The position numbers and the translations under genes are program-made. A stretch of DNA of 64,000 nucleotides from Acinetobacter phage Ab1-TPeters. The first letter of the stretch is position 1; every line of letters begins with the position of its first letter. Location of the stretch: sequence record PP763253.1. The stretch is one strand, 5' to 3'. The notes under the pieces are model-generated. The model worked only from the letters and a program-made list of their open reading frames with translations, searched no databases and was not told where the DNA came from. Shown here piece after piece: positions 7,809-64,000 of the stretch.

Positions 7809-7840
7809 CGTACTTTAAACGAATAAAAACTCCGAGAAGC

Positions 7841-7875
7841 TGTCCCTTATCGATTCTTAAAACCTGTTAAGTTGT
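7841..7875 (+). promoter_or_regulatory. motif-1 variant (..TTCTTAA-AACCTGTTAAGTTGT + GC hairpin)
   Basis: Degenerate first half-site. Upstream of 7927. Approximate coordinates. Confidence 0.35.
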
Positions 7876-7926
7876 GGGCGGGTTGGTTCGCTCCGTTGTT
7901 CTGTTATTTTACTGTGAGATACAATT

Positions 7927-13254: not shown

Positions 13255-13326
13255 GCTTAAAAGCTGTTTTGCTGTAGGTAGCGAGAGTTGCCTGCAGCTT
13301 TTTATTTAGCATTTACTGGAGTAAGC

Positions 13327-14484
13327 ATGGCTAAAATATTAATAATCTCAGACAACTATGTGCCGTTGCTGAAAGATAAAGTAATGGGTGGAGCTGAAGC
13401 TACTCTCATGAACCAGTTAGCTATCCTAACTGAAAAAGGACATGAAATCCGAGTTATTGCCCCAGATGATTCAGATATTGATTTGAAGCAATTAGTTCCA
13501 ATTGGGGAATATTCTAAAGTTTGGTATAATGAAATTGGTTCAGGTGCTCCACGTACTTTGAATAAATTAACTAACCAAGCTATTGATAATGAGATGCGGT
13601 TCTTTAAACCAGATCTGGTTTTGAATCACCATAAACAACCCTCTGTAATTAAGCATCTGTCCCTCTACTCTAAGACAGTTCCTGTTGTTTCTCATGTTCA
13701 CAATGCACCTATCTTTGGTATGCTAAGTGTTAATACTAATAAGGCTTATGCTCAACTAGCTCAAGCTAGAGGTAAGAACTGGGGAGTATCTGGCTGGTGT
13801 ACTCGAATGAACAACGGTTTAGTTGACGGTTGTGTTACTGATACATTCATTATGCAGATTGCACTTGAACGTAAGACAGTTAATCTTCCTGAATACTCTG
13901 CAGTTACTGTAGGACGTTTCGTTGATTGGAAGAACTTACATACTGGTATTGAAGCAATTACTTCAGGTAAGCTATCTGGCCGAGTTGTAGGCTATTCAGA
14001 AGACCCTGAAGATGACTACTGGTTAACTAAGATTAAGCCACTAGTGGAAGGCAATGAGAACTGGCTGACTGGGATCACTCATGCTGAGACTATGGACGTG
14101 GTATCTAGAGCAGTTGTATTCCTCCAGACTTCTCATTTAGAAACTTCGTCATGTACTCAATTTGAAGCAGCTCAACACGGAGTGCCTTCAATTGTTGTAA
14201 CTAAACGAAATGGACATGGTTCATTTGAAGACTCGTTCCTCCCAGACTGGGCTTATATTGAATTAGATAACTACCGTAAGGGTGGTGCATTTACCACTGA
14301 CAAGTTTGTTGAATTATATAACTTGTGGTTTAATTCAGAAACTGGCACCAGCTTGCCTGACTATACTCAACTTGAAGTTCGTCAAAAATTGGCTGATTAT
14401 ATCTACGATAACTTTAATAAAGAAGTCTGGTATTCTAAGTTCGTAGCTAAAGTTAATGATTCATTCAAAGGACAAATTCTGTGA
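13327..14484 (+). CDS. GT4-family (GT-B fold) glycosyltransferase
   Basis: The N-terminal 'KILIISDNYVPLLKDKVMGGAEATLMNQLAILTEKGHEIRVIAP' is typical of GT4 donor-binding N-domains. Start chosen at the ATG after 'ACTGGAGTAAGC'. Confidence 0.55.
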   Translation: MAKILIISDNYVPLLKDKVMGGAEATLMNQLAILTEKGHEIRVIAPDDSDIDLKQLVPIGEYSKVWYNEIGSGAPRTLNKLTNQAIDNEMRFFKPDLVLNHHKQPSVIKHLSLYSKTVPVVSHVHNAPIFGMLSVNTNKAYAQLAQARGKNWGVSGWCTRMNNGLVDGCVTDTFIMQIALERKTVNLPEYSAVTVGRFVDWKNLHTGIEAITSGKLSGRVVGYSEDPEDDYWLTKIKPLVEGNENWLTGITHAETMDVVSRAVVFLQTSHLETSSCTQFEAAQHGVPSIVVTKRNGHGSFEDSFLPDWAYIELDNYRKGGAFTTDKFVELYNLWFNSETGTSLPDYTQLEVRQKLADYIYDNFNKEVWYSKFVAKVNDSFKGQIL

Positions 14485-15593
14485 ATATTTTAATTGTTCA
14501 CTCCTACTTCCATGAATTAGGAGACCTAAATAAACCAGCTGGAGGTATTGAAACTCACACTGCTGGTTTATATAAAGCACTTACTCTTCTAGGTCATGAC
14601 GTAACTATTGCTGCAACTAAAGACTCTAAGTTACAAAAAGATATTAAATTCTTACCTATTGACAATAATTGTAAAGACGCTTCTGAAGGACGTTATTCTC
14701 AAGTTCTTGGTTACGAAAAGGTTACTCAGGAAATCTTAGATGGTGAATTTGATGTGGTTTTAAATAATAACCCGTCTATCTCAGCAATGAAGATAATTGA
14801 TACAGCTTGCCAATTCGCTGGAATAAAACACTTCTACTTTATTCATCAAGTTATTGAAGGCATTTCAGCTAAGTCAGCTATTGATGCTTTGAATCGCAGT
14901 CAAGCTGAACTTATTGCGGTTAGTTCGTATGTCGCTTCTCAAGTACGAAGTCAAGGATATACTGCTGGGCGGATTAAGGTTGTTAACTCAACCTTTGCTG
15001 AACCTGTTGAAAGTATTGTTCCATTTAGATATGAGAAGCAAGCAGTAATGTGTTGCCGAGTAGTTAAGATCCGTGAAGTTTTGTTAGCTGTAAAGACCTT
15101 TGGTGAACTACTTCCAGACTGGAACTTAATAGTTATTGGAGAAGGAGTAAATCACCCAGCTGAAATTCCTTACTTTAATCAAGTTAAAGAGGAAGCTGAG
15201 AAATATGAGAACGTAGACTTAGCTGGTCGTTTAAATCAGGATCAAGCTCACTGTATCATTGATCAATCTTCAGTCTTCTTGAATTTATGTCACTTCGAAG
15301 CCTTTGGTCTAGCTGCATTTGAAGCTCAGAAGTTAGGTATTCCAGTGGTTCACTTCTATAAGGGAGTTAAATCTGGAGTTAGTGACTTTATTCGTGATGA
15401 AGGACGTTATCCTAACACTGACACTGGTGTTGCAGTAAATGTTTCAGGTCTTCGTGAAACAGCACGTAAGAATGAGCTGAAAGAAGCCATCCTTAAGGCA
15501 ACTATGCTAGACAAAGGTTACATTAAAAAGCACTTCAGCAAGTACAGTTTGAAGTCATTTGCTGATGAATTAATGAGAATTATAGGAAGTTAA
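14481..15593 (+). CDS. GT4-family glycosyltransferase
   Basis: 'MNILIVHSYF...PAGGIETHTAGLYKAL..GHDVTIAA' at the N-terminus. A C-terminal 'EAFGLAAFEAQKLGIPVV' matches the GT4 E-x7-E motif. Confidence 0.65.
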   Translation: MNILIVHSYFHELGDLNKPAGGIETHTAGLYKALTLLGHDVTIAATKDSKLQKDIKFLPIDNNCKDASEGRYSQVLGYEKVTQEILDGEFDVVLNNNPSISAMKIIDTACQFAGIKHFYFIHQVIEGISAKSAIDALNRSQAELIAVSSYVASQVRSQGYTAGRIKVVNSTFAEPVESIVPFRYEKQAVMCCRVVKIREVLLAVKTFGELLPDWNLIVIGEGVNHPAEIPYFNQVKEEAEKYENVDLAGRLNQDQAHCIIDQSSVFLNLCHFEAFGLAAFEAQKLGIPVVHFYKGVKSGVSDFIRDEGRYPNTDTGVAVNVSGLRETARKNELKEAILKATMLDKGYIKKHFSKYSLKSFADELMRIIGS

Positions 15594-16082: not shown

Positions 16083-16832
16083 ATGCCTAAATATATTGCT
16101 AACCCAGTTACAGTTGAAGCTACTCCAATGACTCGCCTTGAGTACAATAACCTACGTGGCTGGACTTTACCTTCCGATGAGAACGGTGATGACTTCGGTT
16201 ACTTAGTCACAGCTGATGGTCAAACTAACTGGTTACCTGAAGACCAGTTCAACTTACGTTACCATGCTCTTCCTGAAGCAGCTAAGACTTCCAACACTGT
16301 TACTAATGAATCGTTAGTAAATAAAATTAAGAAAGTTGACTATCTTCAACCAGAAGGTACTACTTTAACTATCTGTATCTTAACTGTTGAGAATGGATTT
16401 ACTTTCCGTGGTGAGTCAGCTTGTGCAGATCCTAATAACTTCAATAAAGAAACTGGTCGTCATTGGGCTTACAAAGATGCATTCTCTAAGATGTGGATGC
16501 CAGAAGGTTACTTACTTCGTCAAAAGATGCATGAGCGTGAACAATTAGGTCCAGATATTTGGGCAGATTTCCGCAGCTTACCAGCTCATGTTTTACGAAT
16601 GATTAAAGAGTGGGTTTGTTTAAATGATGCTACTAAGAAAGCTACTGATTTCTTAGCTCAAGAACAAAATAGTGAAACTGCTAAAGTAGGTATTTCAGAA
16701 GAAGATTGGAATCTACTAAAACAGCAAAATGATGCTCAATACGCTTACTTACGTGCCCTTTTAGCTCGTTTAGAAAAAGCTGGAGTTAGCTTTACTAAAT
16801 TGGATTCTGTGAAACTACCTAGCAGCTCTTAA
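16083..16832 (+). CDS. hypothetical protein
   Basis: 249-aa ORF, no motif. Confidence 0.45.
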   Translation: MPKYIANPVTVEATPMTRLEYNNLRGWTLPSDENGDDFGYLVTADGQTNWLPEDQFNLRYHALPEAAKTSNTVTNESLVNKIKKVDYLQPEGTTLTICILTVENGFTFRGESACADPNNFNKETGRHWAYKDAFSKMWMPEGYLLRQKMHEREQLGPDIWADFRSLPAHVLRMIKEWVCLNDATKKATDFLAQEQNSETAKVGISEEDWNLLKQQNDAQYAYLRALLARLEKAGVSFTKLDSVKLPSSS

Positions 16833-17557: not shown

Positions 17558-17603
17558 AAAACTCAAAATTGACCCCAAAAGCTGTTTAAAGTACAATAAA
17601 CCG
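17558..17603 (+). promoter_or_regulatory. extended motif-2 repeat (AAACTCAAAATTGACCCCAAAAGCTGTTTAAAGTACAATAAA)
   Basis: First of three near-identical ~45-nt copies in the RNA-rich region. Confidence 0.5.
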
Positions 17604-17974
17604 AGAGATCACCTCTCGTAGTAATTTTTACTTTAACTCAACATGAGGGTAAAATTATGAAATTTGCTCTAGTTTAATAATTAGGAATTAACATGTTTGG
17701 AATTTTGATTTTATTGCAAATCGTATTAAATTTTCCCATTAGTACGATTTCTGTAAAACAGTTCCCTAAACCCGCATCTTTCAAATCTTTCAACAAGTCG
17801 AGAGATTTCAAGATTTATAAGATGCACGATGGTCATTACCATCAAGTTTGGGAACGAAGTTGACCGTAAGGTCGCTGGGAAAATTTAGACCAACTTAGCC
17901 TCAAGTGCCGTAGAAATCGGTTAAATAAGCAACTCTGAGTGGACGTACAAACTTCACTGATGCAGCTTGAGATG

Positions 17975-18237: not shown

Positions 18238-18280
18238 GAAACTCAAAATTGAGTTCAAAAGCTGTTTAAAGTGTAATCCA
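18238..18280 (+). promoter_or_regulatory. extended motif-2 repeat (AAACTCAAAATTGAGTTCAAAAGCTGTTTAAAGTGTAAT)
   Basis: About 120 nt upstream of tRNA-Arg. Candidate tRNA promoter. Confidence 0.5.
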
Positions 18281-18398
18281 CAAAGAATGGTAATTACTGC
18301 CTCACTTCAGTATTTTTAATCTTACTACCAGACTAAGTCTTTAGCTGGAGTAGAGGGTATTCCCTTAATTACCATTACTTTGTTGATTAGTCAGCAAT

Positions 18399-18475
18399 GC
18401 CTCGTTAGCTCAGTTGGATAGAGCATCCGCCTTCTAAGCGGAGGGTCACAGGTTCGAGCCCTGTACGTGGCGCCA
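18399..18475 (+). tRNA. tRNA-Arg (anticodon UCU)
   Basis: Cloverleaf read by eye. Acceptor GCCTCGT/ACGTGGC with one mismatch. D-arm GCTC..GAGC. Anticodon stem TCCGC/GCGGA with loop CTTCTAA. T-arm ACAGG-TTCGAGC-CCTGT. Encoded 3' GCCA. Coordinates +/-2. Confidence 0.8.
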
Positions 18476-18861: not shown

Positions 18862-18936
18862 GGGACTGTAGCTGGAAGGTTCAAGCGTTCGACTCATAAT
18901 CGATTGATCTGGGTTCAATTCCCAGCAGTCCCACCA
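18862..18936 (+). tRNA. tRNA-Met (anticodon CAU; could be Met or lysidine-Ile)
   Basis: Acceptor GGGACTG/CAGTCCC is perfect. Anticodon stem TCGA/TCGA with loop CTCATAA. T-arm CTGGG-TTCAATT-CCCAG. Encoded ACCA. Coordinates +/-2. Confidence 0.75.
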
Positions 18937-19004: not shown

Positions 19005-19493
19005 TCTTTAGTTATGGGAATGATGATAACGTCTAATCGCCTATTATAGCCTGAATTGGAATAATAGGACTGGGTAACTACGTAGTCCCAGCATTTCCAC
19101 CAGTTATTTAGGTAATTGTAATGAAAAGAAGTCACTCGAGAAGTACTTACCCTTTTGATAAACCGTTGCCTAGAGAGCTTAGCAGATGGTTTAACTCTCA
19201 AACTAAAAATGCTAAGAAAGTAGTTAAGAGTCTTCAGATTAGTAAGCAGAGATCTTACAATAAACAGTTATGTAAAGATGCCAGAGTAGAATCTGGATGT
19301 GCTAGTGACTGATCTAGTAAACGCTGCGACTTCTTCCCTCCGTCTGTCATAAAAGAAGTTCACGATCCATGAATACCAGCGTTAATGTGTAAACAGTCTA
19401 GACATAGGCAGAATTGTTTCAGTGGTGTAGTGAGCCACTGTGTCGAAAATCACTTTAGTCTGCTTCGGTGGACTATTTTCAGGATAAATAGCA

Positions 19494-19535
19494 ACTCAAA
19501 ATTGACTTCAAAAGCTGTTTAAAGTGTCGAAAAAT
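19494..19535 (+). promoter_or_regulatory. extended motif-2 repeat (CAACTCAAAATTGACTTCAAAAGCTGTTTAAAGTGTC)
   Basis: Third copy; upstream of the small TM ORF at 19542. Confidence 0.45.
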
Positions 19536-19541
19536 CCATGA

Positions 19542-22602: not shown

Positions 22603-22655
22603 CCTGTTCCTTAAAATTTGCTGGAGCCTGTTTGTGTAACGGGCTTCGGTTCGCC
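22603..22655 (+). promoter_or_regulatory. motif-1 variant (CCTGTTCCTTAA-N12-CCTGTTTGTGTAA + hairpin GGGCTTCGGTTCGCC)
   Basis: Between 22215..22601 and the beta-prime C-terminal gene. Confidence 0.45.
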
Positions 22656-22683: not shown

Positions 22684-24207
22684 ATGAATCCACATGTATC
22701 AAAGGATATGAATGAAATCCACCGCCTATTGGATATGAAGATTCTTAAATTGGGTTCTGCAGTTAAATTTAAAATGGAAGATGGCTGGGTTGATACTACA
22801 GCTGGACGTCTTCTAGTTTGGGAAATCTCTGGTTATCTTCCAGATGACTTCTTGAATAAATCAACAATTAAGAAGTTGATTACACATATCAACAGAAACT
22901 ACCCTGCAGCTGAAGCACTTCGTAGATTGAAGCGAGTTCAACAAATCGGATTTGAAACATCTACACAGAGTGGCATCTCACTTTGCTATGATGACTTTAA
23001 ATTCGACTTTGGAATTGACTTTAAAGAAGTTGAAGGTCAATTATCTAAGATGGAAAAAGATGAGCGTGTTGAGTATGCAGATAAGATTATCAATGAATGC
23101 ACAGCACGTTGGTGGAATGAGGTTGATAAGTCTAATCCTCTTCGTAAGATGGGCGTATCTGGAGCACGTGTAACTGATACCCAAGTTCGTCAAATGATTG
23201 TAGCTAAGGGCATCCTTGGTTCAATGGATGGCAGTATTGCTGATTATCCTATTATGGAATCACTTACAACTGGATTGGGAGTTAATAATTACTTCCAGAC
23301 ATGTGGCCCAGCTCGACGTGGTCTAGCTGATAACTTCTTCGTAGTTCCAGCGTCAGGTTACTTTGCTCGTCAGTTAGTTACTGTTGCACGTGACCTTAAA
23401 ATGGTTGAACATGATTGTGAGACAGTTGAGACGATTTACGTTCCAATTGAATTAGCTCGAGGTCGACATGAGTTAGGTAATCCGAATATCTTGACTAAGA
23501 AAGATATTGAGGAACGATCTGGTGAAATGATTAAGATGCGATCTCCAATTACATGTGAGTCAGCTCTAGGTGGAGTCTGTCAAAAATGTGCTGGTTTAGA
23601 TCCAGCTACTGAAGAGTACTGGCGTATTGGAATGGGTTTAGGTACAGCTTCAGGACAACATGTATCAGAACCTACCACTCAGTTAGGTTTACGTGGTAAG
23701 CACTTGTCAGGTGGTGTGACTCTAGCTGGATTGAAGAAGAATGTAAGTAACGTTCTTGCAGATACATTGAAGACACTAGGTGGTAAGGGTACTCACTTGA
23801 TTGGACCTCAACTAAGTAGCGCTAAAGGATTCCATGAGTATTACGCTGAAGAGAAAGATTGGGTCAAAGCTACAACTAATATTATGTTAGTGGTAACTGA
23901 CATCTTTAAGAATGCTGGAACGAACATCGCTTCAGTTCACTTTGAGATGATTCTTCGTGGTTGTACTGATATCGTCCAGCTAGCTGATGGAACTTCAGGT
24001 CTACGTTCTTTGGGTGCTGAGGGTCGAGTTATGCCGATTCATGTACACGGATATGGTCGTAAGGTTCCTAGCTGGTTGAAGCGACTAGGTTACGGTTACG
24101 TAAATGAGACCATTAAGAAAGCGGTTACTACAATGGAGCCGTCACTTGGTGGATATACAGAGCAAATTATTATGGCTCAATTCGAACACTTAGAAGAAGC
24201 TGAATAA
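22684..24207 (+). CDS. multisubunit RNA polymerase beta-prime subunit, C-terminal half (split gene)
   Basis: 'TTAGRLLVWEI..LP' aligns to the beta-prime region around E. coli residue 800. 'ASGQHVSEPTTQLGLRGKHLSGG' matches the trigger-loop/G-loop signature '[21 protein letters not shown]'. No N-terminal zinc finger or NADFDGD motif, so this is a C-terminal fragment encoded on its own. Confidence 0.7.
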   Translation: MNPHVSKDMNEIHRLLDMKILKLGSAVKFKMEDGWVDTTAGRLLVWEISGYLPDDFLNKSTIKKLITHINRNYPAAEALRRLKRVQQIGFETSTQSGISLCYDDFKFDFGIDFKEVEGQLSKMEKDERVEYADKIINECTARWWNEVDKSNPLRKMGVSGARVTDTQVRQMIVAKGILGSMDGSIADYPIMESLTTGLGVNNYFQTCGPARRGLADNFFVVPASGYFARQLVTVARDLKMVEHDCETVETIYVPIELARGRHELGNPNILTKKDIEERSGEMIKMRSPITCESALGGVCQKCAGLDPATEEYWRIGMGLGTASGQHVSEPTTQLGLRGKHLSGGVTLAGLKKNVSNVLADTLKTLGGKGTHLIGPQLSSAKGFHEYYAEEKDWVKATTNIMLVVTDIFKNAGTNIASVHFEMILRGCTDIVQLADGTSGLRSLGAEGRVMPIHVHGYGRKVPSWLKRLGYGYVNETIKKAVTTMEPSLGGYTEQIIMAQFEHLEEAE

Positions 24208-25717: not shown

Positions 25718-26938
25718 ATGAAAACTATTATCAACGGCAATGTAATCTCTGTCAATGAAGCATTTACCGACCGTATGACACAGTACATTGACGATCGAGC
25801 TATTGATTATTTACGTAAAAACTTAGAAGACTCTAAGGCTACAGGTAAGCAATCAAAGTATGAATATTATTCAAACTTAGCAGATCGAACAAATGACCCT
25901 GTAATGAGAGTCTTCTATGAATTTGCTATGCTTCTTCCAGAAGAGCAAGCAATGAATTTAGCACGTGAGTATTATCAACGTGAAATTCGTTCAGGTACTA
26001 TTTCATATGATCAATATGAAGCAGAAAATGATGAAGGTGAATCAACTGGCGGTATGTTGAATACTAAGTTCTCAGTAAGCGCTGGTTTACTTGATAAAGG
26101 TATTTTCTCATCTATCGCTGCAGGTGAACGAGCTACTCCAGCACGTCAAGTAGAAGTTAACGATTTATTTGATAAGTTATTCTTTGAATATACTACTCGC
26201 CCAGCACGTTTAGTTCTTATTGCACGTTTACTTACAGGTTCTTCAACTGGACGAGTACGTAAGCATGACTCTGGTAAACTAGATTTATCTCGAGTAATGC
26301 ATCGCCTTCCTAAAGAGTACGCTGAAGTTATGGCTCAATATGAGCATTTCCTTGATTCAGGTATTCAAGAAGATGAGATTAGTGCTAAGGATCTTATCGT
26401 AGGTTGGAAACCGACTCAAGAACATCCAATCGAAATTAAGGGTATTTGGAACCACACAGCATGGCGTGATGGTCAACGTGATCTAGAAATTGCTATTCAC
26501 GATATGGTTGGTGACGGTTACGAAACTGTAGCTCAGATCCGTAAATTCTTTAACGTTAATGAAGAACTTATTACGTTTGAAGGAGGTGATCTGGATGAGG
26601 TTAATGAGTCAGCTCAAGAAGCTAACCGAATTAATAAAGCTATCGAGTTTATTCTTGCAGGTCAACCAGCTAAATATTCTGATGTAGTTCGTGCACTTAA
26701 GTTTGTTATTGCTGATAACTTAGCAACTAAATCACCAATGCTTAAGTCTAAATTATTTAAGAATCGTAAACCTAAATACGTTCTTGAAGCTATGTTGAAA
26801 ATGCTTAAGTCTGGGCGAGATGAACAAATCAAACAGGTTCAATTCGCTATTCTAGCTCCAGCATTGACACGTAACGTTAAAGCTAAGAAGATGATGATGA
26901 ACGTTTTGAATGCAAAAGGTCGTCAAGTATTAAAATAA
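25718..26938 (+). CDS. hypothetical protein
   Basis: About 406 aa from the internal ATG (track 25685). Followed by a GGGAGC..GCTCCC hairpin. Confidence 0.45.
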   Translation: MKTIINGNVISVNEAFTDRMTQYIDDRAIDYLRKNLEDSKATGKQSKYEYYSNLADRTNDPVMRVFYEFAMLLPEEQAMNLAREYYQREIRSGTISYDQYEAENDEGESTGGMLNTKFSVSAGLLDKGIFSSIAAGERATPARQVEVNDLFDKLFFEYTTRPARLVLIARLLTGSSTGRVRKHDSGKLDLSRVMHRLPKEYAEVMAQYEHFLDSGIQEDEISAKDLIVGWKPTQEHPIEIKGIWNHTAWRDGQRDLEIAIHDMVGDGYETVAQIRKFFNVNEELITFEGGDLDEVNESAQEANRINKAIEFILAGQPAKYSDVVRALKFVIADNLATKSPMLKSKLFKNRKPKYVLEAMLKMLKSGRDEQIKQVQFAILAPALTRNVKAKKMMMNVLNAKGRQVLK

Positions 26939-26973: not shown

Positions 26974-29112
26974 ATGAGCATTAAAGATAATTTAGAATCA
27001 AAAACGTTCCAAGAAATTGGTGGAATTATTACAGAAAACCACCATGATGAGCAAACACGTGATATCAAATTGATTGCAGAATCATTGAGTAATCCAGATG
27101 AATTAAAAACTTATCTAACCTCTGATGCTGGTGTTGAGCCTATAACAGGCGTTGCTGATGGTAACTATTTCAATGTTCGCTCATCTAGTGATGAGCTATA
27201 TACTGATGAGTATCAGAATGTTAACGGTAGTGCTATTGCGACTGGTAAGCGGTGTTTGAGTGCATTAGGGGTGCAGATCCAAGATAAGCTAGCAAGCACT
27301 ATCAAAGATGTGAGTGGAAAGGATCAACAAGAGATTAATGATGAAAATAAAAATAGTCTATTCCGCGTGAATGGAAAAGCAATTGGTATTGTTCCGTTTC
27401 TGGATATTTCATCTGCCCTGTCTGGATTTTTAAATAGCAAAGATGTGCAAGAAATCTATCTAGACGGTGAATATCTACTGAACTCTCAAATTGTTGTGGA
27501 AGCTGGAGCAACACCTAAAAAGATTTTCTGTTCTGACAGCACAATATTGAAGCCAGCAGTTGCTGGAAGTTTGCCGTTATTTGATCTTTATTCATCGGTT
27601 GAATTTCATAACGCAACTTTTGACTACCAAAATGGCAATTGCTTTACGACTCTGAGATACCGACCGAACTGTGGCCTTGTTAAACTTAGAGATATTAAGA
27701 TAAAAAATATTAAAGACATGGTTAGTTCCTACGGAACAATCATTTTCTTTATTTCGACGGAGGGCAATAAACTAGATATTGATGGCGTTTCATTTGAGAA
27801 TTGTCTAAAATTAGGTAATGGCAGTATTACTGATAGTGCCGGATCATTGAACGGGATCTATTATTACGGGAATACTGGGTTGGTGCGAGGTGAAATTAAG
27901 AATATCTATGCCAAAGAATTTCACAATATCAATGCTTCATCTCAAATTATTATCGAAGATACGGCAGTAGTTTATCCTGCTACCGCAGGAGCATACACTC
28001 CTCTGACTATTGAAAACGTGATTGGTGATGAATTTGGAAAGCGACTAGTAAAGGCTCAATCATCAGGCATTACTTTTAGAAATATTCGCGGCACATCAAC
28101 AACAGGGGACTCACTATCTGTTCTTGGTATTCTGTCAGAGGTTGGTCAGTTTACATCAAACAATAATATTGTTTCTGGTGTGTATGCGCGCGGGAATATG
28201 GATTATGGATATGCAGATTCTGGGGTTAATACACAGGTCGATAACCTCGATATTGATTTATATGGATCAAATGCGCTAAATGATGGAAATCTGCACTTTG
28301 GCGCATATCTCGCATCACAGGCAAGGAAAAACACTATCTCTAATTCAAAAATCAAAGCTCGTAGACCTATAGGGATTAATCCATCGCTGATAGGAGAGCC
28401 CATTGAAGATTTGAACCTTGATAATGTTGATCTTGAACTGACTGATGCTGGAAATGTGTTTATCGACATTCCTGGAAATGCTTCTTTAACAAACGGTGCA
28501 ATTAAGCGATTGACAGCAAAACTGACACTAAGAACATCAACAACAAGAACAAAGGGCGCACAACTTATGAGCACATTTGATGCTCAAAAGAACTACAGCG
28601 ATTTTGACCTTGATGTTAAGTTTGTTGATAAATCTAGTGCTTCATGGAAAGCAGTTCTTGGTGGCTTTCACTATATTAAGAACTTAACATTAAGAGCTAA
28701 GTTTATTTCAGAAGGTGGCTTGGCTCCAGATCAAATTGGTGACTTAGCAACAATCAGTAACTCGTCTAACGTATTTGTGCATGTTGAGAGCGAGCAGAAG
28801 TTCAACCGTGGAATCATTGCTACAGCGAATAACGGTTTTAAAGTTTCAAAAGACTTTAAAATCGGATCAGCCACTATTGGTCAAATTGTAGCGACTGGCG
28901 CAGGAACAAAGTACGAAGTACCAGATCATATTGCTCTATTTAACGGATTAACCTCTGTTAATGAGGTTCTTCGTGGTTTCGGTTCTACGGCACAACGACC
29001 TGCAAACGCAACGATCGGTTTTCCATATTTTGACACAACTCTCGGTAAGATTGTAAATCTTAAAAGTGTAAACCCTAACGTGTGGGTGGATGCCACAGGT
29101 GTTACCGTTTAA
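26974..29112 (+). CDS. tail fiber/tailspike protein (beta-helix-like), paralog A
   Basis: 712 aa. The N-terminal 'KTFQEIGGIITENHHDEQTRDIKLIAESL' is shared with the 29799 gene. Repetitive Gly/Asn/Ser-rich beta-strand periodicity. Confidence 0.55.
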   Translation: MSIKDNLESKTFQEIGGIITENHHDEQTRDIKLIAESLSNPDELKTYLTSDAGVEPITGVADGNYFNVRSSSDELYTDEYQNVNGSAIATGKRCLSALGVQIQDKLASTIKDVSGKDQQEINDENKNSLFRVNGKAIGIVPFLDISSALSGFLNSKDVQEIYLDGEYLLNSQIVVEAGATPKKIFCSDSTILKPAVAGSLPLFDLYSSVEFHNATFDYQNGNCFTTLRYRPNCGLVKLRDIKIKNIKDMVSSYGTIIFFISTEGNKLDIDGVSFENCLKLGNGSITDSAGSLNGIYYYGNTGLVRGEIKNIYAKEFHNINASSQIIIEDTAVVYPATAGAYTPLTIENVIGDEFGKRLVKAQSSGITFRNIRGTSTTGDSLSVLGILSEVGQFTSNNNIVSGVYARGNMDYGYADSGVNTQVDNLDIDLYGSNALNDGNLHFGAYLASQARKNTISNSKIKARRPIGINPSLIGEPIEDLNLDNVDLELTDAGNVFIDIPGNASLTNGAIKRLTAKLTLRTSTTRTKGAQLMSTFDAQKNYSDFDLDVKFVDKSSASWKAVLGGFHYIKNLTLRAKFISEGGLAPDQIGDLATISNSSNVFVHVESEQKFNRGIIATANNGFKVSKDFKIGSATIGQIVATGAGTKYEVPDHIALFNGLTSVNEVLRGFGSTAQRPANATIGFPYFDTTLGKIVNLKSVNPNVWVDATGVTV

Positions 29113-29317: not shown

Positions 29318-29854
29318 ATGTTCAATCTTAAATTTGATTGGCGTATCATTCCGGCAGTAGCTTTCTTAGCTATTGTTGGATGGTTCACCTATAATTACAA
29401 TCACAATGCTTCTAAAGTTGAATCTCAAGCTGATACAATTACTAAATTAGAAGCTACCCTTAAATCAAATAAGGAACTCTATGAAACTAACATCGGGTTA
29501 CTTAAAGAACAAACTGATCTTCTAAACAGAACTGTTGAGATCGAGAGAGGTTACAATGAAAATATTAAATCATTGGAAAAAGTTATTGCTGCTAATAATT
29601 CTACTAATTCCAGCTTGCTCGTCTCTCTCAGAGACCTCAGATCCAGAAATCAGGAAACTCCAGCTTCCACTGAAACCTACATTCGACGAGTCGATGTTCT
29701 CACAAGATCACTCGAAGAAGTATCAAGAGGTTATGGTGAAGCAAGCTCAGACCATTCAAGAGCTAGAATAGAATTTAATAAATGTAAATCCTATCTGGAT
29801 GATATATACAAATCAAACGATTCAGTTGAGGAATCAAAAGATGCCACACATTAA
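29318..29854 (+). CDS. i-spanin (Rz-like: N-terminal TM + periplasmic coiled coil)
   Basis: TM segment 'IIPAVAFLAIVGWFTY' followed by heptad-rich sequence. An o-spanin-like lipoprotein ORF is embedded in the +1 frame. Confidence 0.5.
   Translation: MFNLKFDWRIIPAVAFLAIVGWFTYNYNHNASKVESQADTITKLEATLKSNKELYETNIGLLKEQTDLLNRTVEIERGYNENIKSLEKVIAANNSTNSSLLVSLRDLRSRNQETPASTETYIRRVDVLTRSLEEVSRGYGEASSDHSRARIEFNKCKSYLDDIYKSNDSVEESKDATH
29556..29771 (+). CDS. o-spanin (Rz1-like outer-membrane lipoprotein), embedded in the i-spanin gene
   Basis: Signal peptide and lipobox 'LLLIILLIPAC' then a short periplasmic domain. Lies entirely within 29318..29854 in another frame, the classic embedded spanin architecture. 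The track start 29535 was trimmed to an internal ATG. Confidence 0.45.
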   Translation: MKILNHWKKLLLLIILLIPACSSLSETSDPEIRKLQLPLKPTFDESMFSQDHSKKYQEVMVKQAQTIQELE

Positions 29855-31820
29855 TTTACAATCAAAAACTGCAGTTGAAATCGATAACCGAATTGCAGCT
29901 CAGCATCATGATCAACAGACAGCGGATATTAAAGCGTTAGCTTTAAAGACTGATTTAGAGCCAAATGAAGCTATAGCTTTAGCTGGAGCTGGAGTTTGGT
30001 CTGAGGTTCCAGCCTTATTAAATAAAGAAGGTCAAGCTAGTGAGTCCGGGAATGCTCAGGCACAAGCGTTAGTTGATCGAACTGATATGTTAAGATATGC
30101 CTCAGGCATATTAGATGAGAGTGGTCTAAGTCAACAAGAACTTAACCGAGACCTAGCATTTAAGTTCGGTCCATTAGCCAAAGGACCTTCTCGTACATTA
30201 TTGAATAAACTAGTAGAACAAGTTTCTATTCGAGATTTTGGTGCGATCGGCGATGGTGCGCTGCATACCGTCCAGGAATGGATTGATTCAGGTAAGTTCA
30301 GTAGCTTAGCTGACATCAAAACTGAATACCCGCATGTTACTGCATTGACGGACTCTGTGGACTGGGCGGCTATGCAGCTATGTATCAACATGCGAAAGAA
30401 TGTTTATGCACCTGCGGGGACTTATCATTTTGGTGATAAACGTCCAGATACTCCACATAGTGGAAGTCCGAACAGAGTTGATAGCTCTGCTTACATCTTT
30501 GGTGACGGTTGTAAAACGATATTTACTAGAAATGCAATAGCAGAGCCTGCAACACGTATCCTAAAGCCAGATGGAACACTGGATATTGATGCTACGGATG
30601 ACATCAACAACGCTGAGGCAGTGTTTGCTATACATGGATCTTACTACAAATTCTCAGACTTTATGATTCGGAACAGTCGTGTAGGCTTCTATTTCGGTCA
30701 AGATTTGAGAAATTTAACTGAAAAGTCGGCTTGTTATAAAAATATTATTAGGGACGTTCAGATTCGTAATTGCGGTACTGGTGTGTTGTTTAGTTCTGCT
30801 TATGGCAACCATTACAATGATATTTCAAACATTCACTTTATTGAAAACCAGATTGACTGTGAAATGCGCAACGGCAAGCATGATGTTGTAACCATTGCGA
30901 ACAATAACCGAAACTATTTCACAAACATCCGGTCAAATCGCTCGATTGTCGGTCTTTGGTGTACAGCTGGTGATACAAATCGGTTTACTTGTTGGGATGG
31001 TGAAGGGTGTGGTGCAAGCCCGACAAACAACCCTTACCCTGTGCCTGTTGGTTTACCTAAACTGGCCGATGGTGTTACGCAGATCACAAACGGTGTTCAC
31101 ATCTTTACTGGTAATGGTCAGCTAAATAAGATCTTTAACTGTCAGATGGAAGCATGTGATGTTGAGTTGTATAACAATAACTATCGAAATAGTTTTGTGA
31201 ACAACGGCTATCATGAGGCAGTCGCAAACAGCACCCAGGTCTACAACCTTCAAGAGCCTGGTTTGTGGCTCTCGCATAACACGGTATTTACGCCATCGTT
31301 CTATAGTATCTCCAATCTAAATACTAACGCTTTCCCGACAGCAACCGATTTCGGGTTTGTTGTAAAATCTATAGCTAGTAAGAACTATACAGGTACACAG
31401 GAAGTAAAAACATCTCGTACTGCATCTAACTATTCAAGAAAGCGTATTTACGACATTGGTGCAGTTGCTGCAAATGGCACAGCTACGGTTAATATTTGGG
31501 GTGACTCTGACCCGTCCTCTGCTGCAAATATCAAAGTAAAGGTAACAGCTTTATCATCCACAGGTATTTTATCATTTGCGAATGAAATGGCTATCAGTGC
31601 GTATAGATCATCAACAAAATCCTTATCGCGTTACTACATGCAAGAGTTGTATAAACTACGCGCATCTGGTCAAGGTGCAGGGGATTCCACCACTGTTATT
31701 GTTCCAACAGTTGCTAATGGTGGTTCATCTACAAGGGACTTGATTCTCACATTAACAATGCCAGCTTATGATATGGCTAGTGTTTTTGTTGAAGTTGAAA
31801 TTATTGTAGCAAAAGTATAG
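29799..31820 (+). CDS. tailspike/depolymerase with pectate-lyase-like beta-helix, paralog B
   Basis: The N-terminal adaptor is shared with 26974. 'IRDFGAIGDGALHT' matches the pectate_lyase_3 'DFGAKGDGxTDDT' signature of tailspike depolymerases. Confidence 0.6.
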   Translation: MIYTNQTIQLRNQKMPHINLQSKTAVEIDNRIAAQHHDQQTADIKALALKTDLEPNEAIALAGAGVWSEVPALLNKEGQASESGNAQAQALVDRTDMLRYASGILDESGLSQQELNRDLAFKFGPLAKGPSRTLLNKLVEQVSIRDFGAIGDGALHTVQEWIDSGKFSSLADIKTEYPHVTALTDSVDWAAMQLCINMRKNVYAPAGTYHFGDKRPDTPHSGSPNRVDSSAYIFGDGCKTIFTRNAIAEPATRILKPDGTLDIDATDDINNAEAVFAIHGSYYKFSDFMIRNSRVGFYFGQDLRNLTEKSACYKNIIRDVQIRNCGTGVLFSSAYGNHYNDISNIHFIENQIDCEMRNGKHDVVTIANNNRNYFTNIRSNRSIVGLWCTAGDTNRFTCWDGEGCGASPTNNPYPVPVGLPKLADGVTQITNGVHIFTGNGQLNKIFNCQMEACDVELYNNNYRNSFVNNGYHEAVANSTQVYNLQEPGLWLSHNTVFTPSFYSISNLNTNAFPTATDFGFVVKSIASKNYTGTQEVKTSRTASNYSRKRIYDIGAVAANGTATVNIWGDSDPSSAANIKVKVTALSSTGILSFANEMAISAYRSSTKSLSRYYMQELYKLRASGQGAGDSTTVIVPTVANGGSSTRDLILTLTMPAYDMASVFVEVEIIVAKV

Positions 31821-58778: not shown

Positions 58779-61700
58779 ATGACCAAATTTTTGACTGACT
58801 TGACTTTACAAGATCAGGCTGTTTTTATTCTGTTATCTCAAACCAACAACTCAAGAGCATTTGAGAATGGTTATGCTGCTGACTTCTTAAATTTTGTTAC
58901 TATTAACTCTCCTCATCGAATTGGTTATGTTGAAATTACCAATGAAAATGAAGAGCATGTTCTTAATCAAGAAGAAATTTCTAAGTTGAAAGATTTAGTT
59001 GGAAACCGTAAGGTTATTCTTTTAGGTAAGAACACAGTAAAAGCAATTGCTGGTGAGTTGATTAACAACCGAGTTCGTTATTTATCTTTGTTGGATATGT
59101 CATACTTGACTTGTGCTAACTTAGGTAAAGTAGCGATTTGTGGTCACCCAATGTCTTACAAAGACGTCTTTAAAGGAAATGTTGATGCTCAACAGAAACT
59201 TATTCTACGTGTTGATGAGTTAATTCAGCCACGTGCTAAAGAATATGAAGTTGAAATTGTAGCTCCCTCACTGGACGATCTTGAAGACATCTTAAATCTA
59301 TGTGCCAATCAACCAGCCATTGGTTACGACATTGAAGCAAACGATTTAGATATTTGGGCAGCTCACTGGGAAAAGAACTTATTTAGTCTGTCAGTGTTCG
59401 AATCAGAATCTAAACTTATGTCATTCTGGTTTAACTGGCGTGAATTTACTTCGGATCATAAGAGATTATTTGAAAATTTCTTAGATAAGAATCAGTCTAA
59501 AATTTGGACTTACAACTGTACATATGAAATCCAAGCAGCTTGGAGAGTCTTCGGTAAACGTTACTTATTTCAAGATGCTTTGATCTTAACTACTATGGAT
59601 GCTAACCGTGGTGATCTTAAGACTAACGCTCGTAAGTATTTGAAATGTGATTTCTGGGAAGATGAGCTAGCGAGTATTCGTGATGTTTATGAAGCCTTTT
59701 TCAAATTATTCTTAGATAAAGGTAAAAAGAATTCAATACATGATGAGTTCAAAGCTTTTGTTAAATCAGATCAATTCCAGAATTTAGATAATCTTCGTGA
59801 GTTTCTGATTTCTAAGGGTAGAAAACCAGAATGGATGAATGATATTAATGATTTAGCAGTTGCTTTAGGTGAAGATGAAGTAGTCAAAGGTATCTCTGAA
59901 TTTCCATATCAGTGGTCAGCAGTTCCATTCGACATTTTAGGTAAATACTGTTGTTACGATTCAGCTTACACTCTGCCAATTGCAGCTAAACTGTACGGTA
60001 AGTATGAGAAAGGATATAAACATTACATCAAACACCCTTGGTTAGCTTGTATCTTTGAAGCATGGGGATGTGGTTGGGATGAATCTAAAGCTAAGGAAGT
60101 TGAGAAAGATTATTTACGTTTGATGAATGAATCTCTAAGTGAATTGATCTTAAATCTTCAACCTAAGTTAGGTCTTCGAGCTCTAGATGTTAAACCGATT
60201 CTTCAGTGGAAATTACCACATGAGGCTACTTCATACACAGCTACAGGTAAAGAACGTAAACATAAGGTGTTGTCTGAGTACGATCGTCATGGTTGGATTA
60301 AAGGTATTTACAATCCTGGTTCAAACACGGCTGATGCTCGAGCTGTATTCTGGGATGTTTACTTAACAGAACGAGTTGAGTTAGCAACATTTGCATATAC
60401 TCTTGTCAATGATCTTCGATTCAGAGGAATCTGGGAGAAGTTACTGATTAAGATGATTGAAATGACAGAGTTCAAGTCTAAAGATGAAAGTAAGACTGAG
60501 AACGAATTCTTAACTGAATATGGTGCAGCTCAAGTTCTTGAAATGTTGTCAGTATTCTTAGAAAATCCAAATTTAACTGATCGTGAGACAGTTAAGATCT
60601 TGGCTTCTAGTTTCACTGAGACGAATAAGACCTATAAAGACAATACTGGACGTAACGCTAAAGAAGTAATGGCAGCTCAGTATGAGATTCAATGTCAATT
60701 CTTTGGTGTTGACATTGATGATGAATCTACTTGGACTCCTGAATTCAAGATTCTATTCTTACTTCAGAAATATAAGAAAGTAGCGAAAGCTCTGTCTACT
60801 TATGTTAATGGTAAGTTAGGTCGAGGATGTGTATGGTTGTCTAAAGTATTTCCAGATCGTCCTCCAGTTCGATTGAAACCTTATCATGAGGTTGAGGAAG
60901 GATATAAACTTAAACTTGATGAGAAGTTAATTGCATTCTATGACTTTAATAGTTTGTCTGCATCAACTCACCGTTGGGGATCTGGATTCCATACTATTAG
61001 CCCAGGTGTAGCTATCCGCAGTGCTTTAGTTCCGTACTACAGCAATCAGATCTGGACTCATATTGACTTTAGTCAGGCTGAGTTGGTGATGTTGGCATTC
61101 TTCAGTCAAGACCCTAACATGATTAAAGTATTCATGGAAGGTGGAGATATGCACAGATATGTAGCTAGTCTAGTGTATCAGAAGAAGCCTGAGGATGTTA
61201 CTTCAGAAGAACGTCGTGTAGCTAAGACAGTATCATTTGGTATTGTTTACGGTAAGGGTATTGAGAACTTAGCTCTAGAAATCACTGGAGGTGATGTTCC
61301 TCGTGCTCAAGCAATTTTCGATGCTTTCTTCGTGTCATTCCCTGGAATCAAGAAATGGATGGATGAGCGTAAGACTCAAGGTCGTGAAACAGGTAAGGTG
61401 ACTAATCTGTTTGGTGCATTGATTGAGGTGGAAGATGGCTTCAGTAAAGGTAACGCTATTGATCGTCACTCAGTAAACTACCCAATCCAGTCTTCATCTT
61501 CAATGGTTGCTGGTGGTTCAATGTACGACTTGTGTTCTACAGTTGACCAACAAGGAATCTTTGGAACTGGAGTTGGATTCGTGCACGATGCATTAGATCA
61601 TACAGTTGATATCGACAATCTGGTTAACTTCTTAGTTTATTCTAAGAAAGTGATGCAGGATCAAGTTTATGAAGAACTTGGTACTCCGATGAAGATTGAC

Positions 61701-61988
61701 CAAGAGATTGGTGCGACAGCTCTAGACTTATGTGAGCTGAAGAGCTTCACTGAACTTGAAAATGGTTTAGAAATCATTCTCGGAGGTGACGAAGAGGCTG
61801 TAAATAAACTGGTTGACAAGTTTAGAGTAGAGAGTGCTAAGTACGTTATTGACAACACTGAAATCATTGACAGTTCAGACTCATATACATCTTGGGAAGG
61901 ATTGTTTACTGAGAAAGGTGCATATAGTTCAGATCGTGGTCAAACGTTAAAGAAAGTTAAGACTAAAGTGACTCTTCGCTATAGTTAA
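58779..61988 (+). CDS. family A DNA polymerase (Pol I-like, with 3'-5' exonuclease domain)
   Basis: Exo I 'YDIEAN'. Motif A 'IDFSQAELVMLAFFS' (DYSQIELR). Motif B 'RRVAKTVSFGIVYGKG' (RxxxKxxxFGxxYG). Motif C 'VHDAL' (VHDE). Preceded by motif 2; a hairpin terminator follows. Confidence 0.8.
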   Translation: MTKFLTDLTLQDQAVFILLSQTNNSRAFENGYAADFLNFVTINSPHRIGYVEITNENEEHVLNQEEISKLKDLVGNRKVILLGKNTVKAIAGELINNRVRYLSLLDMSYLTCANLGKVAICGHPMSYKDVFKGNVDAQQKLILRVDELIQPRAKEYEVEIVAPSLDDLEDILNLCANQPAIGYDIEANDLDIWAAHWEKNLFSLSVFESESKLMSFWFNWREFTSDHKRLFENFLDKNQSKIWTYNCTYEIQAAWRVFGKRYLFQDALILTTMDANRGDLKTNARKYLKCDFWEDELASIRDVYEAFFKLFLDKGKKNSIHDEFKAFVKSDQFQNLDNLREFLISKGRKPEWMNDINDLAVALGEDEVVKGISEFPYQWSAVPFDILGKYCCYDSAYTLPIAAKLYGKYEKGYKHYIKHPWLACIFEAWGCGWDESKAKEVEKDYLRLMNESLSELILNLQPKLGLRALDVKPILQWKLPHEATSYTATGKERKHKVLSEYDRHGWIKGIYNPGSNTADARAVFWDVYLTERVELATFAYTLVNDLRFRGIWEKLLIKMIEMTEFKSKDESKTENEFLTEYGAAQVLEMLSVFLENPNLTDRETVKILASSFTETNKTYKDNTGRNAKEVMAAQYEIQCQFFGVDIDDESTWTPEFKILFLLQKYKKVAKALSTYVNGKLGRGCVWLSKVFPDRPPVRLKPYHEVEEGYKLKLDEKLIAFYDFNSLSASTHRWGSGFHTISPGVAIRSALVPYYSNQIWTHIDFSQAELVMLAFFSQDPNMIKVFMEGGDMHRYVASLVYQKKPEDVTSEERRVAKTVSFGIVYGKGIENLALEITGGDVPRAQAIFDAFFVSFPGIKKWMDERKTQGRETGKVTNLFGALIEVEDGFSKGNAIDRHSVNYPIQSSSSMVAGGSMYDLCSTVDQQGIFGTGVGFVHDALDHTVDIDNLVNFLVYSKKVMQDQVYEELGTPMKIDQEIGATALDLCELKSFTELENGLEIILGGDEEAVNKLVDKFRVESAKYVIDNTEIIDSSDSYTSWEGLFTEKGAYSSDRGQTLKKVKTKVTLRYS

Positions 61989-62142: not shown

Positions 62143-62179
62143 CCTGTCTCTTAAAAGTTGCTAAAACCTGTTTCGTTGT
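62143..62179 (+). promoter_or_regulatory. motif-1 (CCTGTCTCTTAA-N12-CCTGTTTCGTTGT)
   Basis: Upstream of 62243. Preceded at about 62053-62095 by a second degenerate copy (GCTGTTTCTTAG..CCTGTTCTTTTTACAGG). Confidence 0.45.
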
Positions 62180-62242
62180 AGGGGTTATATTTTCTTTTAT
62201 GATCTTGCTATTGTGTTCTTAATTTTTGTTCGGGTATTTGTA

Positions 62243-62824
62243 ATGTCTTCAGAAAGGCAATCTACTTTAGCTCTATCCTTAAATGAGTTAGAGTTTATTA
62301 ATCCAGATGCATACTTAAATGCGTCTAATTCCACCTCCTTACGGGATTTCGATTATTGGCATTCGCGTGCAACTAACAACGCGAGCTATACCGAGAACCT
62401 TATTCAGGAGGAGTATCGTCGTCAGTATCCGAATTACGATCGCGTAACTCAGATGCATTCCTCGTCAACTGAGGTAACACCTGGAATGAACGGGGGTTCA
62501 GTCCAGAGTTTAATTTCAAGTGCAATACCTGAAATTGATCCTCAGAAAGAGTCAGAGTTTTTGATTCTAGTTCAATCTATCTTGAATAGGTTTGATTTCT
62601 TCGAAAATGAGCAGAAATTGAATCTTATTAAGGTATTTGGTTTTACTATCAATGCCGCTGGCTTATCGACACATCATCCAGACCTAGTTGAGCATGTCTC
62701 TCACTTTAGAGAAATTAAGTTTCCTAATATAGCTGATTTACATCGGTATGTTGGATCACGAACTAAAGCAGATGAAGCACGTAAACTTTTCAAAAACATT
62801 GCAGCAGAATATTTCTTAGGGTAA
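62243..62824 (+). CDS. hypothetical protein
   Basis: Track 62213 with a non-ATG start. An ATG at about 62243 is preceded by both motif-2-like and motif-1 elements. Confidence 0.4.
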   Translation: MSSERQSTLALSLNELEFINPDAYLNASNSTSLRDFDYWHSRATNNASYTENLIQEEYRRQYPNYDRVTQMHSSSTEVTPGMNGGSVQSLISSAIPEIDPQKESEFLILVQSILNRFDFFENEQKLNLIKVFGFTINAAGLSTHHPDLVEHVSHFREIKFPNIADLHRYVGSRTKADEARKLFKNIAAEYFLG

Positions 62825-62830: not shown

Positions 62831-64000
62831 ATGAATAACCGTATCAACCTAGTATTAAGCGTAGCTCGTGATTCAGACATCCGCAAGACTACCAATGGGG
62901 AAGTAACTAACATCGGTTTATATAATTTTAGATTCAAAGAGCCTGTTCCATTTGAGGGTGGATTATTCTGTCAAAAGATTTTTGGGCCAATCAAAGACTA
63001 CACTTGTGCATGCGGTGCACGTAAAGGTGGTAAGACAGTTGATGGTAAAGCACCATCTTGCGAGATCTGTGGGGTAGATCTAGTGAAGTCTGAGGTTCGT
63101 TCAAAACGTGAAGGTTATATTGATGCGAAAGTACATTATGTAAATGCATATGCAATGCCACTCTTGGGTGCAATTCTTCAAATTGGTGAGGGTAATATTG
63201 AAGGAATATGCAATGGTACTATGTATTTCCGTTTTAAAGAATCAATGAACGGTCTTCGTTCAATGTCTGGTAAGTTTTATTCAATTGAGCTATCAAAAGA
63301 AGACAAGACTTGGGGTACTTCTGCTGAGGAGCTCCTGGATGCAATTCAAGATCTTGATTTGGATTCTGCTTACATTATGAAGAACTGCAATAGCCGAGAC
63401 GTGAATCGCTATCACGATAAGGGTTACACTATTTCAGACTTCTTCTGCTCTCACGTGCGAGTGTCCCCTCCACGTACTCGTGATATGTCCGTAGTAAATA
63501 AGGATATATCATTTCACCCAGTAAACAACATCTACGCTCGTATCGTTCGAATTGGAGCACGAGTAGCAACTTTAACCAACCAGATTCTGGAATATGATGG
63601 TGAGTTAAACTTAGAGCAATTAAAACAAGTGATTCGTGGTGAATCAATTGTGCTCCAAGCGCTAATTGATGCCTTGTTGTTTAAAGGAGCTACAGATTAC
63701 CGTGGAAATGAGATTCCATCAGTTATCTCTTCACTTGGAGGTAAGGAAGGTATCGTCCGTGGTAACTTACTGGGTAAACGAGTTGACTTCTCTGGTCGAT
63801 CTGTGATCATTTCCGGACCTGAACTTCCGTTAGATACAATCGGTGTTCCTTGGAAAATGATGTATGAGTTGCTTAAGCCGTTTATTCTGAATAAGCTAAT
63901 TGAGCATCTTGAGGATCTTGATGGTATTTTAACCAGCCAGACTTTGAAGAAAGCTCGAACTATGTATGCTAACAAGAGCACAGAAGCAATGATGTTTATG
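62831..64000 (+). CDS. multisubunit RNA polymerase beta-prime subunit, N-terminal part (runs off the window end)
   Basis: Not in the ORF track because there is no stop in the window. My own translation from the ATG at 62831 stays open to 64000. 'LFCQKIFGPIKDYTCACGARKG..CEICGVDL' is the beta-prime N-terminal zinc finger. 'GNLLGKRVDFSGRSVIISGPELPLDTIGVPWKMMYELLKPFI' matches the near-invariant 'NLLGKRVDYSGRSVIVVGP.L....CGLP..MA.ELFKPF' block. Confidence 0.75.
   Translation, partial: MNNRINLVLSVARDSDIRKTTNGEVTNIGLYNFRFKEPVPFEGGLFCQKIFGPIKDYTCACGARKGGKTVDGKAPSCEICGVDLVKSEVRSKREGYIDAKVHYVNAYAMPLLGAILQIGEGNIEGICNGTMYFRFKESMNGLRSMSGKFYSIELSKEDKTWGTSAEELLDAIQDLDLDSAYIMKNCNSRDVNRYHDKGYTISDFFCSHVRVSPPRTRDMSVVNKDISFHPVNNIYARIVRIGARVATLTNQILEYDGELNLEQLKQVIRGESIVLQALIDALLFKGATDYRGNEIPSVISSLGGKEGIVRGNLLGKRVDFSGRSVIISGPELPLDTIGVPWKMMYELLKPFILNKLIEHLEDLDGILTSQTLKKARTMYANKSTEAMMFM

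Follow-up and report, generated by a model that had tools for sequence, protein, structure and literature searches.

Two open reading frames 38 kb apart in Acinetobacter phage Ab1-TPeters are predicted to be the halves of one bacterial-type RNA polymerase β′ gene

The 64,000-nt stretch of Acinetobacter phage Ab1-TPeters analyzed here (PP763253.1; hereafter, the window) has a base composition of about 37% G+C, and its long open reading frames (ORFs) lie essentially all on the plus strand. Two of these ORFs, separated by 38 kb, resemble different parts of the β′ subunit of bacterial RNA polymerase, the more upstream one its C-terminal half and the one cut by the window end its N-terminal half (Table 1). 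The C-terminal half matched the Pfam domain RNA_pol_Rpb1_5 (2e-14, exceeding the curated cut-off) and, below the cut-off, the end of Rpb1_3 and Rpb1_4; phmmer aligned it to Escherichia coli RpoC with E = 3e-28. The frame of the N-terminal half within the window contains a CxC...CxxC zinc finger plus NLLGKRVDFSGRSVI, exceeds the cut-offs of both Rpb1_1 and Rpb1_2, and matched E. coli RpoC with a phmmer E of 2e-32 (5e-46 for the entire first exon; see below). As sequence matches, those of both halves to RpoC are far beyond chance, and an earlier note on this DNA, which had read the two ORFs as a bacterial-type β′ split over two distant genes, was right in this respect.

Table 1. Features of the β′ genes and their surroundings in the window and on the contig that continues it (window-equivalent positions lie past the window end)
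Feature	Position	Strand	Remarks
Bipartite promoter-like element (CCTGTTCCTTAA, 12 nt, CCTGTTTGTGT)	22603..22640	+	~80 nt upstream of the β′ C-half start codon
β′ C-terminal half	22684..24207	+	507 aa; ATG start; GGAG 12 nt upstream
Conserved ~400-aa protein	25718..26938	+	1.5 kb downstream of the β′ C-half
Family A DNA polymerase (PolA)	58779..61988	+	1069 aa; PF00476 on the identical Logan product
Same bipartite element	62143..62180	+	Upstream of the pair of ~200-aa gene and β′ N-half
Conserved ~200-aa protein	62243..62824	+	Adjoins β′ or its N-half in every relative examined
β′ N-terminal half, exon 1, as seen in the window	62831..64000, clipped by the window end	+	390 codons, stop-free
Exon 1, full	62831 to window-equivalent 64144	+	Contig L003; 438 codons, then TAA
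Group I intron, 360 nt	Window-equivalent 64145-64504, just past the window end	+	Contig L003; Rfam RF00028
Exon 2	Window-equivalent 64505-64675	+	57 codons plus stop; opens FDGDQMAIH

The N-terminal half could be followed past the window end on a 14.6-kb Logan contig (L003), which has 5522 nt in common with the window with 0 mismatches and encodes the same PolA. On this contig the ORF terminates in SPFNAD (…LPPMLCSPFNAD) and a stop codon, and a 360-nt sequence follows that matched the group I intron family RF00028 over the full model (1-253; 66 bits versus a gathering score of 50, E 1.9e-14). The P1 helix pairs exon GCGGAU with AGUCCGC inside the intron, with a U·G pair at the 5′ splice site; the 3′ end reads ...AAUUG, its terminal G directly preceding TTTGATGGGGAT / UUUGAUGGGGAU (TTT GAT GGG GAT); and the minimum free energy fold has both P1 and P2, with z = -5.1 versus shuffles. 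The intron lies between the NAD and FDGD codons, so that NADFDGD, the motif with the three catalytic aspartates, is present only once the 360 nt are removed. The predicted spliced N-half is 495 aa long and, in the NADFDGD region, gap-free against intron-less homologues; self-splicing of the group I intron would thus restore the active site. No homing-endonuclease ORF was found in the intron, whose sole internal ORF (79 aa) had no Pfam match, and no group I intron reached the Rfam gathering score in the relatives L004, L011, and L015-L017.

The earlier note had proposed to look for NADFDGD beyond the window end, and NAD and FDGD are indeed both there, on L003, with the intron between them. It had also named, as unlikely, the case that the two ORFs are a single gene interrupted by an intron or intein; the intron that was found is internal to the N-terminal half and does not join the halves, and there are no intein residues. 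A split intein that would join the halves by protein trans-splicing was ruled out, as no extra residues occur at the break compared with the contiguous sequences of Rhizobium phage TM30 and Vibrio phage Va2.

Both halves were aligned with E. coli β′, the unsplit homologues of TM30 and Va2, and the proteins of phages IME392, RP13, and YerA41. The N-half extends to E. coli residue ~523 and the C-half from ~524 to ~1341, with neither overlap nor gap, so the start of the C-half, which had been placed near residue 800, is much further upstream. The split falls just past the catalytic double-psi β-barrel; in E. coli numbering it lies at 522/523 in IME392, at ~515 in RP13, and at ~636 in YerA41. Because the two ends abut at the same alignment position, the halves belong to one β′ and not to two sets of subunits. 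Rpb1 domains 1-5 occur in canonical order across the two halves, as in bacterial-type β′ (RpoC/Rpb1 family), the C-half contributing the end of domain 3, domain 4, the bridge helix, the second Zn site, and the trigger loop. Retained in the pair are both Zn sites, NLLGKRVDFSGRS, RAPSLHR, NADFDGD (after predicted splicing), the bridge helix, and the trigger-loop Arg and His, while SI3 and the C-terminal ~50 residues are missing. In the N-halves of IME392 and EP_H11 the catalytic motif reads NMDVDGD, with the three Asp kept and two near-invariant residues altered. The N.D.DGD motif occurs exactly once per genome, and each relative genome has one copy of each half. Both halves also matched a single PHROG, made up of unsplit proteins (1216 positions), in parts of the profile that do not overlap.

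The window β′ is 28% identical to E. coli β′ and 25% to that of YerA41; across the clade the figures are 26-33%, about equal to the identity of its most distant members among themselves, and 22-25%, respectively. The large protein database searched holds 21 homologues of the C-half (34-91% identity, 455-570 aa), and since nearly all are about as long as a half gene (~500 aa), the split form makes up an established family; an exact-match look-up of the C-half protein returned no identical entry on record. We conclude from these comparisons that the two ORFs are, as predicted proteins, complementary halves of one bacterial-type β′. The two polypeptides would come together without a covalent link, in the manner of the split largest subunits of cyanobacteria and archaea.

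When both ORFs were compared as nucleotide sequences with 50,697 phage records, nothing matched, so that relatives were found at the protein level only, and an exact 41-mer from the window end was absent from IMG/VR. These relatives are the E. coli phages EP_H11 (111 kb; L011) and IME392 (116 kb; L002), Ralstonia phage RP13 (171 kb), Vibrio phage Va2 (128 kb), and ten Rhizobium RHph records of ~154-208 kb assigned to Kleczkowskaviridae (taxonomy line checked for TM30); in GenBank entries of relatives, β′ is already annotated as such. Acinetobacter phage vB_AbaM_3098 (PV081573.1; L001) has a C-half with 78% identity and no match to the N-half in its 55.6-kb record. That record is labeled a complete circular genome and is collinear with the window over ~1.9-57 kb; it is probably incomplete, which would be plausible if modified DNA hampers sequencing.

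Gene arrangement differs widely among these phages. A single unsplit β′ gene lies downstream of PolA in TM30 (1127 aa) and Va2 (1192 aa). In metagenomic contigs L015 and L016 the N-half is followed by the C-half after a gap of 81 nt (a short N-half gene call on the JGI contig L015 is a gene-calling difference only, the DNA being identical to that of L016), in contig L017 one 123-aa ORF separates them, and in RP13 they are 2.7 kb apart with five small ORFs intervening. The order is reversed, C before N, in IME392 and EP_H11, and in the window the C-half lies 38 kb upstream of the N-half. The module order PolA, ~200-aa protein, β′ is common to IME392, EP_H11, TM30, L015, and L017. In Ab1-TPeters the C-half has been relocated, the N-half holding the ancestral place downstream of PolA.

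The window was described in the earlier note as an unusual mosaic of an RNA polymerase and a replication module. The same combination (PolA, helicase, primase, ligase, topoisomerase II, and SbcCD plus β′) is, however, common to IME392, EP_H11, RP13, and TM30, and is a trait of the lineage, the phages with YerA41-like PolA. IME392, RP13, RHph-TM30, and YerA41 have been grouped by this PolA in the paper on Carin-5, which also discusses thymidine hypermodification (PMC12686479). The window holds a set of hypermodification-type genes (13288-15593, 35525-36663, and 52439-54980): two glycosyltransferases of the GT4 type, three proteins resembling dNMP kinases/AAA_28, a protein similar to thymidylate synthase (it matches part of the profile and may be a dUMP hydroxymethylase), and an HD phosphohydrolase/dNTPase-like protein. 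Judged by these predicted functions, the set fits the Carin-5/YerA41 lineage.

A β subunit was then sought with phmmer, using E. coli RpoB and YerA41 β (924 aa), and with a joint hidden Markov model (HMM), all at --max, in every stop-to-stop ORF of at least 40 aa in the window, L003, and the complete genomes of IME392, Va2, and TM30 (the last one circular), which measure 116-208 kb. Nothing above ~8 bits was found in any of them. As positive controls, YerA41's own β was recovered with 144-2055 bits (E 1e-42), and RpoC detected TM30 β′ with 501 bits. A tblastn search of all phage records with RpoB detected β in YerA41 and Carin-5 as well as in many phiKZ-like phages; the 60 records listed include no lone-β′ phage, and by the organism counts the ten Rhizobium records cannot be among the matches. 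The RefSeq annotation of TM30 lists no β, α, ω, or σ. Strict regular expressions for β signatures, a weak test, matched the E. coli control alone and missed YerA41 β as well. Since β′ in this clade resembles that of E. coli more than that of YerA41, a co-inherited β should be easily seen. We therefore consider it highly probable that Ab1-TPeters has a single split β′ within a β-less lineage. A literature search on lone phage β′ found no paper noting the absence of β or discussing function in the library searched. In Va2 (L010/L013/L014), giant hypothetical proteins of 2191, 1214, and 1128 aa are encoded near the unsplit β′; they have no similarity to β under HMMER --max.

Two conserved genes accompany β′ in this clade. 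An iterated HMM search found the ~200-aa protein in EP_H11, IME392, TM30 (two copies), Va2, RP13, and L015-L017, always beside the β′ gene; the family comprises 6 proteins in 5.8 billion. It matched nothing in Pfam (E up to 10), PHROG, or PDB, and its AlphaFold2 model was unusable (predicted local distance difference test [pLDDT] 50). A σ-like identity would be a tentative assignment at most: a helix-turn-helix resemblance at the C-terminus was seen by eye only, and the database searches were empty. The protein is a candidate accessory factor of the polymerase. The ~400-aa protein has homologues in vB_AbaM_3098, IME392, EP_H11, L015/16, and L017, with 29 cluster representatives in a 1.84-billion library. 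Its gene sits between the PolA and β′ genes in the split-gene subclade; because it lies 1.5 kb downstream of the C-half here and in that position in relatives, it probably moved together with the C-half. Neither a PDB profile search nor Pfam or PHROG matched it, and a single-sequence AlphaFold2 model of a 417-aa family member was unusable as well (pLDDT 39). The idea that it is a hidden β did not hold up: hhalign probabilities were 0.2%, 0.1%, and, with a 30-sequence profile, 0.05%; an Rpb2_3 Pfam hit in the family (IME392 and EP_H11; E ~0.09) was weak and failed profile-profile tests; and resemblances by eye to the β motifs 'ETPEGPNIGLINSL' and 'LFENLFF' occur in the wrong order. Both neighbors are predicted, with low confidence, to be all-helical. 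A further protein of ~220 aa that follows the C-half in several relatives was not seen in the window and had no Pfam, PHROG, or PDB match.

Both β′ halves are preceded by the same bipartite promoter-like element, CCTGTYTCTTAA, 12 nt, then CCTGTTWAANTGT (also written CCTGTTTCTTAA...CCTGTTAAATTGT), in which the spacer usually ends in AAR. Ten copies start at 21832, 22603, 24428, 36924, 44711, 45128, 47509, 48888, 51635, and 62143 of the plus strand, all on the coding strand and 60-100 nt upstream of start codons. Searched as a 16-mer with up to 3 mismatches, the element was expected 2.6 times, and in 0 of 100 shuffles was the count of 10 reached. A GC-rich hairpin often follows, and the second box resembles an extended -10 (TGtTAAATT). 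It is probably a phage-specific class of promoter, perhaps of the middle type, and because it precedes both halves, they are probably co-expressed and co-regulated. Promoters resembling those of σ70 occur elsewhere in the window. A 48-nt repeat with TTGAC-N17-TA(C/A)AAT-like σ70 promoter hexamers is present in three copies (17559-17606, 18239-18286, and 19492-19539) and adjoins two tRNA genes (18399-18472, Rfam 64 bits, and 18862-18933, 63 bits).

Several other genes of the window and of L003 deserve mention. Six small or medium-sized ORFs flanking the C-half (starting at 20814, 21900, 22215, 24229, 24974, and 25328) share a related N-terminal peptide, M(T/S)(T)RI(G/S)K(I/L)LEINESL, whose DNA is 60-79% identical over ~55 nt; they had no PHROG hits. 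A common targeting peptide or propeptide (there is a T4-type capsid-targeting likeness, with an LxE site) and a trace of serial duplication are both possible readings. Two large paralogous proteins, of 712 aa (26974-29112) and 673 aa (29799-31820), the second matching a PHROG tail protein at 2.5e-188, are encoded amid replication and nucleotide-metabolism genes, outside any structural module. Also in the window are a protein with N4 gp49/Sf6 gp66 and crAss001_48 domains (16083-16832) and a NADAR-domain protein, of a family linked to ADP-ribose processing (40035-40508). Past the window end, downstream of the N-half, L003 encodes a family X DNA polymerase (7232-7963 of the contig) and an actin-like protein (ALP_N/MreB-like_C; 10721-11662).

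What might a β′ without a β do? Host partners are proposed here because the lineage encodes no β: the split β′ would join host α2β (and ω) to form a hybrid, phage-specific polymerase, whose second barrel would come from host β, and the ~200-aa neighbor may act as its specificity factor. On the sequence comparisons above we lean towards a lone, catalytically intact, split β′ that assembles with host β, α, and ω. The assembly with host subunits is itself a tentative step. So is the wider proposal, that a clade of tailed phages of 110-210 kb (infecting Acinetobacter, E. coli, Ralstonia, Rhizobium, and Vibrio, several in the lineage reported to have hypermodified thymidine) replaces the host's catalytic β′ by its own copy and thereby makes a hybrid polymerase dedicated to phage DNA. 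A number of points weigh against this reading. Sequence covers ~72 kb of this phage's genome, so that a β gene may lie elsewhere; YerA41 and Carin-5, of the same PolA lineage, do encode β; the phage β′ is, at 28% identity, distant from that of E. coli; and its N-half matches Acinetobacter rpoC no better than Salmonella rpoC (28.1% versus 28.2%). RNA polymerase assembles in the order α2, α2β, α2ββ′, so a hybrid needs free or newly made host β during infection. The structure models of both conserved neighbors, moreover, were too poor for interpretation.

The points concerning YerA41 and the uncovered sequence are also those from which a different explanation can be built, namely that Ab1-TPeters encodes a complete, single-set multisubunit RNA polymerase as YerA41 does (β′N, β′C, and β), with β in the rest of the genome, about 40-50 kb of which lies beyond the sequence covered, or too diverged or fragmented to be recognized. 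The split β′ with β beside it in YerA41 and Carin-5, the two conserved neighbors without a recognized fold, and the weak Rpb2_3 hit would all accord with it. However, β was absent from three complete relative genomes under the same searches that detected YerA41 β, and a β inherited with this β′ should be at least as detectable, given the closer relation of the clade to E. coli; the ~400-aa family fell to 0.05% in hhalign, its two motif-level resemblances are out of order, and both neighbors appear to be helical. We regard this explanation as unlikely. Less likely again is that the β′ homologue is a non-catalytic decoy or competitor that, for example, titrates host σ or β and so shuts off host transcription. 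A lone subunit without a partner would suit such a role, as would the insertion at the clamp coiled-coil tip, which measures 6-10 residues in members with a split β′ (3 in Va2 and 0 in TM30). Against it, proteins that share only 28-45% identity all retain the three catalytic Asp, both Zn sites, the bridge helix, and the Arg and His of the trigger loop, and the intron in NADFDGD requires precise splicing to recreate the motif; together, the kept elements and the intron indicate selection for catalysis.

The earlier note had favored a phiKZ/AR9-like system with virion and non-virion RNA polymerases, in which the two ORFs might come from different sets. Such phages are defined by two polymerase sets, β in pieces, and host independence (PMC7598289; PMC7824862), and their core includes a divergent family B DNA polymerase and a genome over 200 kb (PMC7824862). 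Split, scattered β′ genes are typical of phiKZ and AR9 (PMC7598289; PMC7824862), and weak PHROG and tblastn matches to AR9-type subunits were obtained here as well. Yet the halves abut exactly, occur once each per relative genome, and are adjacent or a single gene in relatives; PolA stands in place of the divergent polymerase of family B; genomes of relatives go down to 111-128 kb; and the C-half ORF lacks the N-terminal peptide of the neighboring small ORFs. The note had named a genome without β as a finding that would speak against it, and no β was found in the window or in the complete genomes of IME392, Va2, and TM30. We consider dual polymerases of this kind highly improbable in Ab1-TPeters.

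The lone split β′ can be set beside several known systems. With the phiKZ/AR9 jumbo phages it shares a phage-encoded β′ homologue split into N and C polypeptides from separate genes. Those phages, however, also encode β, divided into two or three pieces, as a rule have two complete paralogous sets with a fifth subunit, and transcribe independently of the host, whereas this phage has one β′ that is nearer to cellular β′, no detected β, a PolA replisome, and relatives of 111-208 kb. The T-hypermodified DNA phages YerA41 and Carin-5 belong to the same broad PolA lineage (PMC12686479) and also have β′ split in two near PolA; in YerA41 β directly follows β′C and the split is at ~636 instead of ~523. 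The cyanobacterial and plastid RpoC1/RpoC2 and the archaeal A′/A″ likewise make one largest subunit from two polypeptides without protein splicing, but these are cellular enzymes with adjacent genes. By the length of RpoC1, the cyanobacterial split would lie ~100 residues further downstream than the site here; the β′ splits of jumbo phages, for their part, have been said to coincide with it (PMC7598289).

As to the intron, group I introns in active-site codons are found in T4 td and nrdB, in the DNA polymerases of SPO1 and Bastille, and in an RNA polymerase gene of ΦPA3; the intron here differs in having no homing-endonuclease ORF and in splitting NAD/FDGD of a β′ gene. Introns in the RNA polymerase genes of AR9 were reportedly described by Lavysh in 2016. 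That self-splicing introns sit in the most conserved codons of essential enzyme genes is a general principle, and the jumbo phage ΦPA3's group I intron is an established case (PMC12908238). We found no report of an intron at the NAD/FDGD site of a β′ gene, which appears to be new. If the hybrid is real, its logic would resemble that of T4 gp55/gp33 and AsiA/MotA or SPO1 gp28, where the catalytic core of the host is steered to phage promoters by a component from the phage; the factors in question are proteins that resemble or bind σ, not a subunit of the catalytic core. To our knowledge, no case has been described in which a phage copy takes the place of a catalytic core subunit.

Within a single gene family, this clade displays all stages of fragmentation: the unsplit gene, neighboring halves, halves with genes inserted between them, halves in reversed order, dispersal over 38 kb, and an intron in the active site. 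Such a series inside one clade appears to be new, and it makes the clade a living model for the possible origin of the scattered RNA polymerase genes of phiKZ and AR9, in whose scattering mobile introns have previously been proposed to play a part (PMC7598289). Two routes are known by which phages take over transcription, small factors that modify the host polymerase or a complete polymerase of their own, and a β′ that is predicted to be catalytically intact, lacks a β, and is conserved in phages that infect five host genera matches neither. If it does pair with host β, rifampicin would block phage transcription in a normal host but not in an rpoB(RifR) host, and the host's RpoB would co-purify with the phage β′. 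It would then be a new form of host take-over, a third strategy beside σ-like factors and fully phage-encoded polymerases.

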